Notes: generated by a model not told the origin, from the sequence alone. DNA of 31,760 nucleotides from Candidatus Micrarchaeota archaeon (GCA_043813365.1 JBDRLB010000007.1:1-31760); one strand, 5' to 3'. Counted from the stretch's first letter, positions 19,122 to 31,760 are shown. Program-made: numbers and translations.

Positions 19122-19131
19122 CCTAATGTAT

Positions 19132-19371
19132 ATGGAAGTCTCAACCGTACGATTGCACAAGCGCACAAAATCCTACCTCGACCGTTACCGGGAATATCGG
19201 AATGAGAGTTATGATGAGGTAGTGATGAAGCTCGTAGGCATCGCGGATCATCTTAAAAGCGATCCTGACCTGTCGAGGGAGGCGGTCGAACGGGTTGAAG
19301 CAGCACGGAAACGCATAAAAAATAACGAGTTCATTACTGAAACGGAGGCTAGGAAAAGGCTAGGCTTGTGA
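19132..19371 (+). CDS. Putative antitoxin with RHH-like N-terminus
   Basis: STVRL...ESYDEVVMKL N-terminus, ITETEARKRLGL tail; GTGA overlap with the relE-like gene. Confidence 0.8.
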   Translation: MEVSTVRLHKRTKSYLDRYREYRNESYDEVVMKLVGIADHLKSDPDLSREAVERVEAARKRIKNNEFITETEARKRLGL

Positions 19372-19625
19372 CGTACGAACTGATTTTTGATAAGAATGCA
19401 ATTAAATTTCTGGAAGGCCTCCCAACTGCAATCAGGGAGCGCATTTTCAACAAAATTTCCGCCGCAAAGGAAAATCCCAATCATTTTTTCGAGCGCTTGG
19501 AGAACAGGAGCGACTATAAGCTGCGCGTCGGCGATTACCGGGTCATTGCGGATATCGATCACAACCTGAAGAGGATAGAAATAACCCTGATTGACCATCG
19601 TAAACGGGTTTACAAGCGGATCTGA
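19368..19625 (+). CDS. relE: RelE/ParE family toxin
   Basis: YELIF..A.KFL, YKLRVGDYRVI, HRKRVY. Confidence 0.9.
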   Translation: MTYELIFDKNAIKFLEGLPTAIRERIFNKISAAKENPNHFFERLENRSDYKLRVGDYRVIADIDHNLKRIEITLIDHRKRVYKRI

Positions 19626-19651
19626 TCCCAAAAGCCAAGATTTAAAGCGTT

Positions 19652-19710
19652 GAGGCGCCAAAATTAGTTTTCTTTTAGTGAAGTTTTTCTTTCCCTAAAA
19701 GAAAAAGTTC
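19652..19710 (+). repeat. Hairpin repeat copy in the tRNA leader, ending at tRNA position -1
   Basis: GAGGCGC..TTTTCTTTTAGTGAAGTTTTTCTTTCCCTAAAAGAAAAAGTTC, an inverted homolog of intron 19751-19800. Confidence 0.7.
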
Positions 19711-19879
19711 GCAGGGATGCCGGAGCCTGGTCAAACGGGATGGACTCAAGGAACCTCTTTTCTTATGAAGAAAAGACGTTCACGAGAAAAGAAGCGCCTC
19801 GCAAACAAGTTGTTCGGCGCATTTTTTGGGAGATCCATTAGCCTCAGGGCTTGCGTGGGTTCAAATCCCTCTCCCTGCA
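19711..19879 (+). tRNA. tRNA-Leu(CAA) with 82-nt intron at canonical 37/38 (19751-19832); CCA not encoded
   Basis: Acceptor GCAGGGA/TCCCTGC plus A73; anticodon stem ATGGA/TCCAT; CAA at 19747-19749; variable arm AGCC/GGCT; TTCAAAT T-loop; BHB central helix CTCA/TGGG with AGA bulge. Confidence 0.93.
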
Positions 19880-19900: not shown

Positions 19901-20383
19901 ATGTTATATATTTCAACAGGCAGGAAGCCCTCCGTCACAACAAGGAAACTCGCAAGACTGCTCTCGCTCATTCTAAATGCGAAATACGAGAACCGCGGGA
20001 AGCGCTCAGTTGATGATGTATGTGAAAGGGCGGAAAAATCCGGCTGCTCAAGGATCGCCTTCATCTATGAAAAGAAGGGCAACCCTTCCTCAATCCAATT
20101 TTTCGATTCGGAAAAGGGCTGGTTGAAGGAGGAGTTTATAATTGCCGGGGTGGTTGTTCCGGAATTTGAAAAACGGAAAAGGATTCCGCAGCAAATGGAA
20201 GTTAAATCTGATGATGAAAATGGCAAAAAAATAATCCGCCTTCTCGGTTTGGAGGAATCCGACGAATTCCCCTCCCCTCTTCATGGCATATTCTCGGGCA
20301 GGGGAATGGAATTCCTTCTGAACAATGAAAAAATCCTCTTCCTAAAGGGAAAACTAATCGAATCTCCTAAAACGCACGACTAG
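19901..20383 (+). CDS. Brix-domain ribosome biogenesis protein (archaeal Imp4-like)
   Basis: ISTGRKPSVTTR, NRGKRS, EKKGNPS motifs. Confidence 0.85.
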   Translation: MLYISTGRKPSVTTRKLARLLSLILNAKYENRGKRSVDDVCERAEKSGCSRIAFIYEKKGNPSSIQFFDSEKGWLKEEFIIAGVVVPEFEKRKRIPQQMEVKSDDENGKKIIRLLGLEESDEFPSPLHGIFSGRGMEFLLNNEKILFLKGKLIESPKTHD

Positions 20384-23300
20384 AACACTTCCCAAAATCA
20401 CAACAAACATCAGTACTGCATAATAACTGTTCTCTGGAAATGAGGGAATCGAAAGGTTGGTGCCTCCAGCCCCACCACCTGCTCCTGTTCTCGCATAAGT
20501 GTACAGATTGTCCGCAGGGATTCCCCTTGTCCCATCGGGCGTATTATACAGGCTCAGCCCCCTCTTCGCAAAGTCCTGGTTCCAGTTGATGTCCTGCCCA
20601 TTGAGCGCATACCACAATCCAGTGCGCGGATCAAATGCTATCATCCCTCCCATTCCTTTTGCCGCAATAAGGGCAGCAAGTTCCGCAAGCCCATTGGGGC
20701 CGTTCGCAGTAAGCCACGGCTGGCCGTTCTGCATATCTATTTTGAACCTGAACTCCCCTTGATCGGTCGGGACGATTATCTCATTCCCCTCCTTCCTTAC
20801 AGGCCCGTTAATCTTGTAATCATTCGATTCGCCGGTAGTCTTATCGAGCACGGTCAGAATTGGGTTTCCGTTCGCATCCGTCCCGAATGTGAATTTCTTG
20901 TTGTCCGTCTCAAGCACCTGGAAGCCGCCGAGGTTGCCATTCGCATCGGTTTGCACCTCCTTAAGCGCCTCCCTCATTTCCGCTCCCTCCTTCTCAGCGC
21001 CCACCTTCTCCTGCACATCCGTTATCGCAATTGCCGGCACAGAATTTCCATTGCTGTCCTTATTCGTCCTTACTGCAGTTGATATGCTCTTGATGGAATC
21101 TCCCGCCTTGTTCTTTGCAAGTATATAAAGCGCAACAACAAGCCGTTTCCCAGCTTCATCAAATTCGATTTTCCCTCTTTCAGTGATGATTGCAAGCAGC
21201 TTCCCTGCGCTGACGCTGTCCATATCCTCGCTGTTCTTGATGTTCCCCTTGATCTTCACTTCGCCGTTGCCCATTATGGAAATGTAGTTGTTTTTGAAAG
21301 CGCTCAAATCCTTCTCCTCCGTTGCCTCCAAACTCGGCGCTTGCACTTCTATCCCGATTGTATCATTCTCCCCTTCTTCCTCCGCAACTCCCCTGATGAA
21401 CCTTACTCTCCCGCCATCAGCAGAAATCCTCCCATCGGTAGTGTAAACCGCGAGCACATCCCCAAAACCAGATGCTGTAAGGTCATTCGTTGCGCTGATT
21501 TTCATCTGCTTCAGCTGCTGCCTTAAGCACTGGGTGGTTGTGCAACTGTCATCTGAAATTATAAGCGATCCGCCCCTTCTCCCTTTCTCCAAAGTGGGCT
21601 GCACCTGCAAAATCTCATTCTCGGAGCAAGTGTTGTCCAAACCTGCAGAAATGATCCTGTTGGGCACCAGCGTTCTTGCAAGGTCTTGCATCATCAATGA
21701 AAGCAATCCGCGGTCCTTGCTCGTTGATAATTTGATGCTCTTTCCACTCGTTTTGTCAGTGTAAGTTACCCCTGTTGCATCCGCGCAAACATACCCATCC
21801 TTCGAATCATAGCATTCCCTGAAGCAGCCATTCTTTGCCAATTTATCATAAACGCCAAACCATTGCGAGGTTGCACCATCCAGATGCAAATAATACAGAT
21901 CCTGCGGGCTTATTTGCCCGTAAGAGTTCTCCAAAAATGCCCTCAAATTAAGTAATTCGGAGAGCGACTTCTCCTCGATTTTCTCCCCGATCCCGCCAAT
22001 CAGGCCCGTAAGGTTCAGGTCTTTTCCCAGATTTTTCAGGTCGCTAAGTTTCTGATCCATATTCTGCCCGGAAGTCCCGCCTGCGATTTTCTGGTAAGCA
22101 ACTATTTTGTATTTCGTGTCCTTGCAAAGCGAAACATATTCCATTCCCTGAGAGGCAACAACTGTTTTTCCTAATTGAATGGGGTCGATCAGCACCATCG
22201 CCTGATAAAGGTTTCTTAGCGCTTTTTCACTCCCCGTAAGGCCTTTTTTTAAGAGACCGCTATCTTCCTTCACAGCCGTCTTGAGGCTATTGTATGTTTT
22301 TTCAACTTCCGTAAATTTTGGTGTCAATGCCTGCTCCGCCCTGACTGCCTGATTCCATTCCAATAGCGCTTGCTGGGCTTGGACTGACTGTGGGCTTAGC
22401 TGGGATTCCCTGGTATATGTGTTAAATTTGCTGAGGGTTAGCTTTTGTGCATCCTTGAAGGGTTCGCTGACTGCCTTAAGTTCCGTTTCAGCAAGGGTAA
22501 GTTCCTTCCTCATTGCCGGCGTCACCTTCCCGAACCAACTTTCAGTTTTTCCGGCAGCTGCCCCTTTTTCAACGAGCCTGATCAGGACCTTGTTCTTGAA
22601 TGCGGATCCGAGAAATTGCAGTAGTCCCTGCGACGGCATAAATACCGCTCCAGTCGACTGGAGAATTGAAACCCCCGTAAGAACTTTGAACCAGTCGAGA
22701 TAATTATCCACTTTTTCTTCATCGCACATCTCATCCTTCTTGAAATTCACCGGATCGACCAGATGAGTTACTGCAAGGTCGAATGTGCCTAGCCGGATGA
22801 GCGCCGCAATCGGAACCGTCAAATATTGTGAAGTTGTCCCCCTGAACACTACAAATCCTACTAACGGAGAGAGCACCTGAAGGGCACGGAAATAGTCGCC
22901 AAGGCTCTCCTTCGAATTCATCGTCGTACCCAAATCCAGGTTGTTGCTATACATTGCCAAACTGGTATACTCCGGCTGGTATTTCACGTCTTCAAACAAC
23001 GATGTCTCTGATCTGCCTTTCCAATCGATGTTGACATTCCATCTATCTGCCGCTTTTTGTATGCTGGTGACGCTGCTCGAAGGCGCCGTATCCTCCGATG
23101 CTTCCCTTGCAAGCATGTATACTTTTCCAACATCAAATGCTTTTCTGGGCGCTCCAGCTTCAAGGAAATTTGAAACCCAATCTGTGATAATTCCAGAGCC
23201 CATGAAATCAGTTGCCTTCCGGAAATCCTTCAGGTATGCGTTGTTGTTCACGTAAATTTGCAGGTAATTGTCCTTCAGCGCCTTGTCATTCGTTGCAAGG

Positions 23301-24553
23301 GAAGATAGCATTACTTGGTTGGACGCGGAAAGTGCTACCCTCGCGGCTCCCATCCAGCCAAGCCCGAAGATGAAAATTGACATCGGCCGCAATTTATAGA
23401 TGGATGTTTCGAATTCAAGGTTCCTGATATTAATGTCGTCCAGGGCGATTTTTTTATCGAGATCCAATCCCCTTTCCAATAATTCCTCGTTTTTCGCACT
23501 TGTTGAGCCAAACGATCCCTGCCTTAGCTGTGAAAGCCTGTTGTATTGCTGGTTGTTATCTCCGTGTGTCCTTATCAATCCCTGAACTCCTTCCTTTGAA
23601 AACATCACAGATACTGTGCCCGCAAGCGCAAAGAACATTTCCGCCTGCGACCATGAACCCACCGTGTTAATGTATTTCTCATACATGCTCGGTATTATCA
23701 TGGAACCGGAATAGCTGTTCAGGACGGCAAGCGTCTGAGTTGCGGTGATGTGCTGCGGCTTCTTCACAACCGTCTTGCTCTCATCGAACCCCACATATAG
23801 GTCGCTGTCGAGCAGCGCCTGGAACGACACTTTCCCTGCAATGAAATTCCTGTCCAGCATGCACGCATCCTTCTTGTCCTGCGGCTGCACCTTCATCAGC
23901 TCCGCAAGTGCAACGCTCTTCCCATTGGGAAGCACCACTTTGTAATTCTCATATTCCGGAGTTGGTATTTGGCCTGCAGTTGAAATTCCAAGCGACTTGA
24001 TCAGGTTGCTCCCCCCTCCGGGCTGCCTTGCTGCAATTGCCTTCACCTGCTCCATAGTCAATTTCCCATTATTGGGGTCAATATTGAACTCCTTCGCGAG
24101 CTCCTCCCTTTGCTCATCCTCATATTCCAGCAGGGACGCAACTGACCTAATGTCATATGTAGGCGGATCGTTCAGGTTGATGTTTATTTGTATCTGCTGC
24201 GCTGCCTTGTTGGTGGGATCGTTCTTCAATAACGCCTCATCACTCAATGTTGAAATCTGCTCCGCCTGGAATTTCGCTAATTTTTGCTGGTACGCCTCCA
24301 CTTCAGCTGCATCCATTGCAGATGCAGTGCAAGTGCCCTCATAATCGAATTCCGGCTCCGGAGAAGGGGAAGCATCCGCGAAATTGATTATATTGGGGGC
24401 CGTTCGGGCCTTTACCGCAATTGCACCCCTGCTTTCATCATCATTGTAGTAATTGTAATAGGAATACGCGTGGCTTAGCGGGATGAAAATCTGCACGAAG
24501 AGCAATGCAATGACCGCAATTGGAAAAACCTGCAGGGTGTTCTGGTTTTTCAT
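20354..24553 (-). CDS. 1399-aa secreted or surface protein with internal hydrophobic helices and C-terminal anchor
   Basis: Signal peptide ending SHA; internal hydrophobic segments; Cys-containing C-terminal half; Gly linker, IPSFPE, TM, RFRR. Confidence 0.8.
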   Translation of the reverse strand: MKNQNTLQVFPIAVIALLFVQIFIPLSHAYSYYNYYNDDESRGAIAVKARTAPNIINFADASPSPEPEFDYEGTCTASAMDAAEVEAYQQKLAKFQAEQISTLSDEALLKNDPTNKAAQQIQININLNDPPTYDIRSVASLLEYEDEQREELAKEFNIDPNNGKLTMEQVKAIAARQPGGGSNLIKSLGISTAGQIPTPEYENYKVVLPNGKSVALAELMKVQPQDKKDACMLDRNFIAGKVSFQALLDSDLYVGFDESKTVVKKPQHITATQTLAVLNSYSGSMIIPSMYEKYINTVGSWSQAEMFFALAGTVSVMFSKEGVQGLIRTHGDNNQQYNRLSQLRQGSFGSTSAKNEELLERGLDLDKKIALDDINIRNLEFETSIYKLRPMSIFIFGLGWMGAARVALSASNQVMLSSLATNDKALKDNYLQIYVNNNAYLKDFRKATDFMGSGIITDWVSNFLEAGAPRKAFDVGKVYMLAREASEDTAPSSSVTSIQKAADRWNVNIDWKGRSETSLFEDVKYQPEYTSLAMYSNNLDLGTTMNSKESLGDYFRALQVLSPLVGFVVFRGTTSQYLTVPIAALIRLGTFDLAVTHLVDPVNFKKDEMCDEEKVDNYLDWFKVLTGVSILQSTGAVFMPSQGLLQFLGSAFKNKVLIRLVEKGAAAGKTESWFGKVTPAMRKELTLAETELKAVSEPFKDAQKLTLSKFNTYTRESQLSPQSVQAQQALLEWNQAVRAEQALTPKFTEVEKTYNSLKTAVKEDSGLLKKGLTGSEKALRNLYQAMVLIDPIQLGKTVVASQGMEYVSLCKDTKYKIVAYQKIAGGTSGQNMDQKLSDLKNLGKDLNLTGLIGGIGEKIEEKSLSELLNLRAFLENSYGQISPQDLYYLHLDGATSQWFGVYDKLAKNGCFRECYDSKDGYVCADATGVTYTDKTSGKSIKLSTSKDRGLLSLMMQDLARTLVPNRIISAGLDNTCSENEILQVQPTLEKGRRGGSLIISDDSCTTTQCLRQQLKQMKISATNDLTASGFGDVLAVYTTDGRISADGGRVRFIRGVAEEEGENDTIGIEVQAPSLEATEEKDLSAFKNNYISIMGNGEVKIKGNIKNSEDMDSVSAGKLLAIITERGKIEFDEAGKRLVVALYILAKNKAGDSIKSISTAVRTNKDSNGNSVPAIAITDVQEKVGAEKEGAEMREALKEVQTDANGNLGGFQVLETDNKKFTFGTDANGNPILTVLDKTTGESNDYKINGPVRKEGNEIIVPTDQGEFRFKIDMQNGQPWLTANGPNGLAELAALIAAKGMGGMIAFDPRTGLWYALNGQDINWNQDFAKRGLSLYNTPDGTRGIPADNLYTYARTGAGGGAGGTNLSIPSFPENSYYAVLMFVVILGSVLVVRFRRFD

Positions 24554-28141: not shown

Positions 28142-28205
28142 CAAATTGTTTTCTTTCCGGCGGAGCCACCGCCGCTTTCTTTTCTGAAAAGAAAGGGGCA
28201 AGGCA
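28142..28205 (+). repeat. Hairpin repeat copy between pyrI and the HAD gene
   Basis: CAAATTGTTTTCTTT, CGGCGG/CCGCCG stem, CTTTCTTTT-CTG-AAAAGAAAG stem, GGGGCAAGGCA end. Confidence 0.65.
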
Positions 28206-30916: not shown

Positions 30917-31012
30917 TGCCTTGCCCCCTTTTTGGAAAAAAGGTTGCGTTGACAAAAAGTCAACTTATTGCGAGGCTAACGCCTCACAATGGCGATGGCC
31001 CCGCCGCCAAAA
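30917..31012 (-). repeat. Multi-hairpin cassette related to the tRNA intron and the pyrI-downstream repeat
   Basis: Minus strand: ATTGTGAGGC-GTTA-GCCTCGCAAT, GTTGAC/GTCAAC, CCTTTTT/AAAAAGG, then GGGGCAAGGCA. Confidence 0.65.
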
Positions 31013-31017
31013 AGCAT

Positions 31018-31760
31018 TTACCCTTTGATAACTCCAATCGGCACCATCTTCGCGACAATTTTCGAGATCCCGGCAAGTTCAACCGCTTTCACCACTTCAT
31101 CAACGTTCTTATAGGCGCCTCCGAATTCCTCCGCAAGCAGATCATAAGAGCCCGCCTGTATCGCCTGCCCCTTCTGCTCCATCTGCTTTACAATTTCCCT
31201 ACCGGAGAATTTCCTTGTCGCTTCATGCCTGCTCATGACCCTTCCTGCACCATGGCAGCTGCTGCCGAAAGTGACCGCAGCCCCGGGCAATCCGCACAGC
31301 AAGTAAGAGGCGGTATTCATCGAACCCGGAATTATCACAGGCTGCCCTACGTTCCTGTATGCCTGCGGCACCTCCTTCCTCCCCTTCCAGAATGCGCGCG
31401 TTGCGCCCTTCCTATGGACGCATACCTTTTTCGTTTTCCCCTGCACTTCATGCTCCTCGAATTTCGCGATATTGTGGCATACATCATAAACCAATGAAAG
31501 GTCATAATCCTCCCATTTCCCCCCGAACACCTGCTGGAAGGTTTCCCTGCACCAATGGGTCATCAACTGGCGGTTGTTGAATGCGAAATTAATTGCTGTG
31601 CGCATCGCCTGCAAATAATCCTGCGCTTCGGGGGCAGAAAGCGGCGCGTATGACAATTCCCTGTCAGGCAATTGCCAGTTGTTCCTCTGTATCGCGCCCA
31701 TCATCGTCCGGATGAAATCATCGCAAATTTGATGCCCGTATCCCCTGCTTCCGGAATGCA
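31018..31760 (-). CDS. rtcB: tRNA-splicing ligase RtcB, 5' part outside the window
   Basis: Frame is open to the window edge with HSGSRG; also HN, HRKGAT, PGSM, HGAGR, AYK. Confidence 0.96.
   Translation of the reverse strand, partial: HSGSRGYGHQICDDFIRTMMGAIQRNNWQLPDRELSYAPLSAPEAQDYLQAMRTAINFAFNNRQLMTHWCRETFQQVFGGKWEDYDLSLVYDVCHNIAKFEEHEVQGKTKKVCVHRKGATRAFWKGRKEVPQAYRNVGQPVIIPGSMNTASYLLCGLPGAAVTFGSSCHGAGRVMSRHEATRKFSGREIVKQMEQKGQAIQAGSYDLLAEEFGGAYKNVDEVVKAVELAGISKIVAKMVPIGVIKG

Follow-up and report, generated by a model that had tools for sequence, protein, structure and literature searches.

Transposition of tRNA introns has been described in the Thermoproteales. Intron gains in this group were inferred from comparisons of close relatives, and the host splicing endonuclease has broad specificity (available sections of PMC4090602 and PMC3239211). 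According to the available part of the 2014 review, the mechanism of this transposition is unknown and is thought to act on DNA (PMC4090602). A second relevant system is ARMAN-2 (Candidatus Micrarchaeum acidiphilum), whose epsilon2 splicing endonuclease (EndA) cuts both strict and relaxed bulge-helix-bulge (BHB) motifs. The tRNAs of this host are heavily interrupted, and they contain T-loop introns at 59/60-like positions and relaxed BHB motifs (available sections of PMC3239211). Shared intron sequence modules are not reported in those sections, supplementary tRNA tables aside. In the portion available of a 2026 preprint on Asgard archaea, no general route of tRNA intron arrival was found. Among bacteria, the PIT/BoxC/TM_ECO repeats are dispersed elements tied to local instability and rearrangements (Holder et al. 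2015, PMC4666352, in the part available).

The DNA analysed here, referred to as the window, is a contiguous stretch of 31,760 nucleotides from a Candidatus Micrarchaeota archaeon. The assembly comprises 1.34 Mb in 78 contigs with 49% G+C and is 88.6% complete. The window probably contains a functional tRNA-Leu(CAA) gene with a relaxed BHB intron, the 5' 45 nt of which would be an old copy of a cassette that has been copied throughout the order; we hold this combined reading with good confidence. What is new relative to known intron transposition is a variant with a defined cassette in a lineage carrying epsilon2 EndA. No description of such a cassette was found in a literature search whose scope excluded the 2010 Thermoproteales paper and the ARMAN supplements.

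The tRNA-Leu(CAA) gene was read by hand at positions 19711-19879 (+) and has a 7-bp acceptor stem and a long variable arm. Exon 1 (tRNA positions 1-37) lies at 19711-19750 (+), with the anticodon CAA at 19747-19749; it was read by hand and from ARAGORN on the spliced sequence, and is the same in five of five same-genus genomes. The intron (19751-19832, +) interrupts the gene at position 37/38, is 82 nt long and is of the relaxed BHB type. Exon 2 (19833-19879, +) extends from position 38 to the discriminator A. The unspliced gene was missed by ARAGORN with and without its intron option and by Rfam, both at the gathering threshold and at E<=10, and tRNA-Leu(caa) was called by ARAGORN only with the 82 nt taken out. 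The intron recognised in the initial annotation is real, as its excision restores a tRNA that ARAGORN accepts. A U.U pair in the T stem is common to all orthologues and is thus not a mark of a pseudogene.

The surroundings of the gene contain several further features. A DUF7557 ORF and a ParE-like toxin ORF (19126-19625, +) overlap by 4 nt, lie directly upstream of the tRNA-Leu promoter region and look like a toxin-antitoxin pair; the ParE-like gene ends at 19625. A TTTAAA sequence at 19642-19647 (+) was read as a possible TATA box. On the other side, an ORF of 1399 aa (20354-24553, -) adjoins the tRNA and has no Pfam match at E<=0.001.

The intron begins with a unit termed module A (19751-19795, +), which is the best match of covariance model R1 (E 1e-7). 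Module A consists of an outer helix GAAC/GUUC of 4 bp (19751-54/19778-81), which covaries, a C.C mismatch (19755/19777) and a 9-bp stem formed by a pyrimidine strand (19756-64), a loop (19765-67) and purine strand 1 (19768-76). These are followed by purine tract 2 (19784-94), which is the mirror of purine strand 1. Hairpin B (19794-19820; GCGCC 19794-98, GGCGC 19816-20) is a shortened homologue of hairpin B of the orthologues. In folds, pairing is possible between a U tract (19822-19827) and the 3' portion of purine tract 2, which would extend hairpin B to the central helix of the splice motif. Both hairpins had been described in the initial annotation and both are present, hairpin A with its outer helix, C.C mismatch and 9-bp all-pyrimidine/all-purine stem, and hairpin B at the same position.

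Functional modules can reside in tRNA introns, as with the C/D box sRNA of the archaeal tRNA-Trp intron. The tRNA-Leu intron differs in that neither the C box (RUGAUGA) nor the D box (CUGA) occurs in 19751-19832 and no Rfam match at E<=10 lies within it. A C/D box sRNA in this intron was ruled out, as the boxes are absent. Elsewhere in the genome, a tRNA-Trp(CCA) gene cut by a contig end (C46:39087-39283, -; L054) contains a long canonical intron; C/D-like boxes are visible in this intron by eye, and its last element, immediately ahead of the 3' splice site, is a reverse module A.

The splice motif contains a central helix of 4 bp, CUCA (19745-48) with UGGG (19827-30), and a 3' bulge of 3 nt (AGA, 19831-33) that holds the 3' splice site between G and A. 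On the 5' side, hairpin A follows A36 and G37 without a gap and the junction is branched. The strict hBHBh' form, with a 3-nt 5' bulge and an outer helix made with the 3' part of the intron, is absent, and the branched 5' junction makes the motif a relaxed one. The earlier description of a preserved central helix and 3' bulge, with a 5' bulge opening into a branched structure directly before hairpin A, agrees with this structure. The BHB-constrained fold has a free energy of -29.9 kcal/mol versus -33.6 kcal/mol for the unconstrained minimum, so that the BHB form is 3.7 kcal/mol higher; the unconstrained fold pairs CUC with GAG instead. Across seven Leu introns from related genes, the central helix varies in step with the anticodon, CUCA occurring with UGGG or UGAG and CUUA with UAGG or UAAG, and compensatory changes were found in 13 of 37 predicted pairs.

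EndA of this genome is encoded by a single ORF of 388 aa with two catalytic-domain matches, and aligns over its full length to the three-unit epsilon2 EndA of ARMAN-2 (PDB 4fz2_A, E 2e-128). By analogy with the ARMAN-2 enzyme, it would have broad specificity (PMC3239211). The gene for the RtcB tRNA-splicing ligase (31018-31758, -; Pfam PF01139, E 7.4e-85) is partial and runs off the contig end, and RNase P RNA is present in the genome. As EndA, RtcB and RNase P RNA are all present, a pathway for splicing the tRNA-Leu intron is encoded. Most likely, the epsilon2-type EndA cuts the relaxed BHB intron of tRNA-Leu(CAA) and RtcB rejoins the exons, splicing itself being predicted from gene content and structure. 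Leader removal without RNase P was considered and is needless given the RNase P RNA. Sampling across the phylum detected an epsilon2-like EndA of full length in 60 of 61 genomes (one, G066, is flagged as unpublished). EndA type was rejected as the explanation of the cassette distribution: the enzyme is widespread, R1 at E<=1e-6, under strict filters and with 59 candidates per genome, matched in none of 94 genomes sampled outside the order, and a permissive enzyme alone does not explain where the cassette occurs.

The hairpin of module A belongs to a large family in this genome. Perfect all-pyrimidine/all-purine hairpins of at least 8 bp were scanned for on both strands of the whole genome, which yielded 74 strand matches (39 loci) versus 0-8 in 10 Markov-shuffled genomes, a ~26-fold excess; as the sequences are of low complexity and mutually related, these shuffle statistics overstate independence. 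Most of the loci (23/39) are located inside tRNA introns, which are canonical, D-region and above all T-loop introns. Three loci lie directly before tRNA 5' ends, three lie beside a complete tRNA and are followed by a duplicated tRNA end fragment of 17-22 nt, and six lie beside protein genes or are otherwise intergenic. Two loci, on C42 and C45, are unclassified and have no Rfam identity, and the remaining two are of different composition and probably unrelated. With predicted T-loop introns (97 and 146 nt) taken out, ARAGORN calls tRNA-Arg(tct) and tRNA-Asn(gtt), and removal of a T-loop intron also gives a tRNA-Leu call.

Two kinds of modules can be recognised in these introns. Module A contains a helix of 3-4 bp beginning with the first base of the intron, a C.C or CC.CC mismatch, a pyrimidine/purine stem of 9-11 bp, 5-9 nt and a second purine tract. 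Class 1 contains a G+C-rich 5' clamp, the stem, a small G+C-rich hairpin and a purine tract, and is often paired with an inverted copy; the intron is then bipartite, and its two ends make up the outer helix of the BHB. Together, module A and class 1 make up most tRNA introns of the genome, whether canonical, D-loop or T-loop. The tRNA set is difficult to detect with standard programs, ARAGORN with the intron option reporting 10 tRNA genes (two with implausible introns of >1 kb) and the Rfam tRNA model 18 genes above cut-off. Long or multiple introns conceal most tRNAs of the genome from standard tRNA finders, and annotation of such genomes consequently under-counts tRNAs.

An alignment (A1) of 36 module A copies, taken from the present genome and from those of relatives, was used to build covariance model R1. 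Three outer-helix pairs covary, and one of these pairs occurs as GC (12 copies), UA (9), AU (6) and CG (3). Pairing was found in 80.4% of the outer-helix cells of A1 versus 70.7% of shuffled cells, none of 500 shuffles reached the observed score, and shifting the partner columns lowered every pairing measure. At E<=0.01, R1 detected 14 copies in this genome, 13 of which were training sequences; further genomic copies, which the initial annotation had made a test of its proposal, thus exist. In a search of 40 genomes of the same order, with 150 candidates scored per genome, R1 matched in 21 at E<=1e-4, with 0-31 matches per genome. The positive genomes are distributed patchily among families (f1 7/9, f2 1/6, f7 2/6, f9 2/6 and f11 5/6). 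Outside the order, no match at E<=1e-6 was obtained in 94 genomes of the same phylum, under strict filters and with 59 candidates per genome. On this comparative evidence, module A is an order-wide cassette of 45 nt and not a chance hairpin.

It is extremely improbable that the similarity arose by chance among low-complexity A/G- and C/T-rich hairpins of an ordinary intron. The motifs are indeed of low complexity, and blastn-short of the Leu module A against this genome gave nothing better than 13 nt, so no near-identical second copy accompanies it; its family membership rests on architecture and on a model partly trained on copies of its own genome. A chance origin is opposed by the excess over shuffled genomes, by covariance-model E-values down to 1e-7, by 93%-identical copies in other families and by the covariation of both the outer helix and the mirror tract.

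For hairpin B, the resemblance is at chance level. The initial annotation had matched this hairpin to the minus strand at 30961-30976. The match exists as a 17-mer with 2 edits but is of a quality to be expected by chance, as two such matches occur in the window and at least two were obtained with 5 of 40 shuffled versions of hairpin B. A blastn-short search of the whole genome gave a best exact match of 13 nt (E 0.5). Hairpin B as a dispersed module was rejected on both counts. In alignment A2 and its consensus fold, it aligns with a longer conserved hairpin of the orthologues, with a 10-column deletion in the copy of the window, and it is therefore inherited and not a dispersed module. The proposal that the intron is built of dispersed modules accordingly holds for the 5' 45 nt, which belong to the module A family, and fails for hairpin B, a vertical homologue.

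Several copies have been identified outside introns, some of them within the window. A reverse module A (19666-19711, -; R1, E 5.6e-6) ends 4 nt before the 5' end of tRNA-Leu(CAA); on the + strand it reads as a pyrimidine tail (19667-78) and a perfect 9-bp hairpin (19684-92/19698-19706). If the TTTAAA at 19642-19647 acts as a TATA box, this copy would be inside the transcribed 5' leader. Reverse copies also precede tRNA-Leu(CAG) (C13:21247-21292) and a possible tRNA-Ser recognised by eye (C65:5723-5768), both ending 4 nt before the mature 5' end. The fixed 4-nt distance of the three leader copies suggests a leader function or a preferred insertion point.

The other two copies of the window lie beside protein genes. 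A class-1 half element (28148-28204, -) is located between the stop codon of pyrI (28207) and the start of the next gene (28129), beginning right after the stop codon. It contains a 5' clamp, a perfect 9-bp pyrimidine/purine hairpin (28175-28195), a G+C-rich hairpin and a mirrored purine tail. A class-1-like element with extra internal hairpins (30918-31014, +) lies between a PIN-domain gene and the rtcB stop codon and begins 4 nt past the latter. The likeness that had been noted between hairpin A and the hairpins at 19684-19710 and 28171-28199 is borne out, all being perfect 9-bp pyrimidine/purine hairpins of the same kind. Class-1 halves at or within a few bases of protein-gene stops were found at pyrI, at C44:20843-20890 and at C74:3830-3900, and may be terminators or insertion scars. 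At C74, a second copy of ~36 nt from the 3' end of the gene, stop codon included, lies beyond the element.

Comparison of related genomes revealed extensive turnover of these introns. In G004, a close relative, the tRNA-Leu(CAA) gene contains an extra T-loop intron of 66 nt that the other five orthologues lack. This intron is 85% identical over 48 nt to the intron at the same position of another tRNA of G004, and the two share a further 9-nt motif. The tRNA-Pro(CGG) gene of G004 contains a D-loop module A intron that is absent from its orthologue in the present genome. Three genomes of family f7 have an intron-less tRNA-Leu(CAA) and no R1 match. The Leu(CAA) intron of G029 is 54 nt long and based on module A, and that of G035 is 35 nt long and lacks the module. 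T-loop introns of two tRNAs from a genome of another family show 93% and 89% identity to the cassette of the window over 42-46 nt, and the same cassette occurs in a D-loop intron of a third family. Its presence is not confined to separate tRNA genes. The 16S rRNA gene of G004 (C4:4350-5200; L091) contains two module A copies in sense orientation, suggesting that this cassette also builds rRNA introns, and the spacer tRNA-Ala of G019 also carries it. A further variant was observed in the tRNA-Leu(UAA) gene of G023 (contig C1; L022), where a canonical intron of 127 nt contains a tandemly repeated purine tract and spacer after one module A; this looks like a slippage-type expansion.

Near-identical introns at different positions of different tRNAs, and differences in presence and absence between orthologous tRNAs of close relatives, are the marks of Thermoproteales-type transposition, and both were found here. 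As read from these sequence comparisons, the cassette family is copied between sites and is gained, swapped and lost between close relatives. The system differs from that of the Thermoproteales in three respects. The hosts are relatives of Micrarchaeum with epsilon2 EndA, whereas the crenarchaeal enzyme is of the (alpha-beta)2 type; what is shared is a cassette of defined structure that includes a mirrored purine tract; and copies also occur in leaders, in rRNA-gene insertions and beside protein genes. Because cassette introns differ between close relatives, such a cassette is a plausible vehicle of intron gain. The suggestion in the initial annotation of a route for archaeal intron gain stands to this extent, with the extra introns of G004 as examples, but it is not supported for the tRNA-Leu intron itself.

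The Leu(CAA) intron is present at position 37/38 in five of five same-genus species and is therefore old and not recently founded by insertion. Module A occupies it from the first intron base in four of these five species, with compensatory changes in the outer helix and stem, and a class-1 module occurs in the fifth (G002). In the tRNA-Leu(UAA) gene, module A is found at the first intron base in four of five same-genus species; the Leu(UAA) intron of the present genome is bipartite class-1 where its relatives have module A. By comparison of the orthologues, the Leu(CAA) copy of module A is old and vertically inherited within the genus, and only hairpin B has decayed.

These observations bear directly on the earlier proposal that a MITE/REP-like DNA element founded or expanded the intron. 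Taken as a recent insertion into tRNA-Leu, this is a reading that we regard as quite unlikely. Some features of the family do resemble an inserted element. MITEs and REP/BIME elements are likewise short, non-coding, hairpin-forming and dispersed, and the two inverted halves of bipartite class-1 introns are reminiscent of terminal inverted repeats. Copies outside introns include the three in tRNA leaders and the six beside protein genes or in intergenic regions, three of which begin at a stop codon or only a few bases from one. Assemblies break at modules, and contigs from two DNA runs end at modules in the region. Target duplications of 17-36 nt flank four copies, namely tRNA ends on C2, C42 and C50 and the protein-gene 3' end on C74. 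The three tRNA cases (C2:28676-28800, C42:10260-10400 and C50:18250-18500; L051) each comprise a complete tRNA gene, the repeat element on one or the other side of it and, beyond the element, a second copy of the tRNA's own end (17-22 nt), and owing to this duplication the spliced and unspliced readings give the same tRNA.

Against a recent insertion are the shared position of the Leu(CAA) intron in the whole genus, the parallel presence of module A in Leu(UAA) and the vertical inheritance of hairpin B; a recent founding of this intron by an element is not upheld. The MITE/REP-like label is not retained either. Neither a consistent short target-site duplication nor an autonomous partner was detected for the modules, and inverted halves are limited to bipartite class-1 introns, so that the terminal inverted repeats, short fixed duplication and autonomous transposon of a MITE are lacking. 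A single, solitary Y1_Tnp gene of the IS200/IS605 type was identified (C8:179-523). It is flanked by unrelated G+C-rich hairpins (C8:14-600) and not by modules as in a RAYT arrangement, and a link between the Y1 transposase and the modules was rejected on this ground. A reverse transcriptase gene (PF00078) was not found in the 88.6%-complete genome. Unlike MITE and REP/BIME elements, the modules have neither a consistent target-site duplication nor a linked transposase or RAYT, and most copies are inside tRNA genes at spliceable sites. Two gene-adjacent copies are preceded by T-loop-like bases, which weakly hints at movement from introns to intergenic sites.

An old, vertically inherited copy could also be explained by function. 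The cassette would then be a conserved RNA domain that, for example, presents the splice site, binds a protein or stabilises the intron after excision, and it would be inherited vertically, selected and non-mobile. Its sequence and structure are strongly conserved with compensatory changes, its start is invariably at or adjacent to the 5' splice site, seven of eight intron-borne module A copies of this genome are in forward orientation, and the purine tract is unpaired in the consensus fold. A non-mobile domain is difficult to reconcile with a cassette that occurs at varied positions of unrelated tRNAs, in the 16S rRNA gene, in reverse orientation in leaders and beside protein genes, that differs in presence between orthologous tRNAs of close relatives, and that varies from 0 to 31 copies per genome with a patchy distribution across families. 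We consider this explanation improbable, if slightly less so than recent insertion. Function and mobility are not mutually exclusive, and the conservation of a copied cassette could reflect function.

In almost all copies, purine tract 2 mirrors purine strand 1 and does not repeat it directly. In 77 modules with a tail match of at least 7, the match of purine tract 2 to purine strand 1 was longer in mirror orientation in 54, tied in 21 and longer in direct orientation in 2; in asymmetric stems only, the corresponding numbers were 43, 8 and 1. The mean mirror run was 9.13 versus 7.69 +/- 0.09 with tails exchanged among modules; because the copies are related, this figure is not a probability. 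A number of different G spacings vary in concert across the three strands. Purine tract 2 is unpaired in the consensus fold of the seven Leu introns, and in the window it can partly pair with 19822-27.

The strand order of pyrimidine stem, purine stem and mirrored purine stem is the intrastrand-triplex pattern of the PIT/BoxC repeats. As in the PIT/BoxC/TM_ECO family, pyrimidine stem, loop, purine stem, loop and purine stem follow each other on one strand in many dispersed copies. The bacterial motif is G/C-rich and intergenic, whereas the motif described here is A/T-rich. Module A furthermore contains an extra outer helix with a C.C mismatch and is mostly found inside archaeal tRNA introns that are predicted to be spliced. 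From this pattern, a triplex may be predicted for module A. Purine-motif triplexes form in DNA and not in RNA, and pyrimidine-type triplexes form in RNA (PMC4666352, in the part available). A triplex of the forward module A would thus be a feature of DNA, and reverse copies, such as the leader copy (19667-19706), as well as the right halves of bipartite introns, could form U.A-U triples in RNA.

The flanking duplications and the expansion in G023 may point to DNA-level recombination or slippage. Module A would be copied between tRNA sites at the DNA level, probably by recombination between tRNA genes or through instability at triplex-prone DNA. The Leu(CAA) copy would then have been passed down vertically within the genus while hairpin B was shortened. 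More tentatively, and with a lower likelihood than the reading of the locus itself, module A and class 1 can be viewed as a mobile triplex-prone cassette whose mirror architecture drives its own copying, for instance by triplex-induced breakage or slippage combined with recombination between tRNAs. The built-in helix by the splice site would make insertions spliceable by a permissive epsilon2 EndA, and triplex-induced breakage or slippage with recombination would explain the flanking duplications of 17-36 nt.

The recognisable cassette marks related introns across tRNAs, positions and genomes, and it marks gains and swaps within one genus. As it can be recognised, with gains, swaps and copies outside introns, the donors, targets and timing of intron movement become traceable. 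The triplex hypothesis for the mirrored purine tract, if true, would tie the spread of introns to non-B DNA or to RNA triple helices. If the modules do form a mobile triplex-prone cassette, it would represent a concrete DNA-level route of tRNA and rRNA intron gain in archaea.
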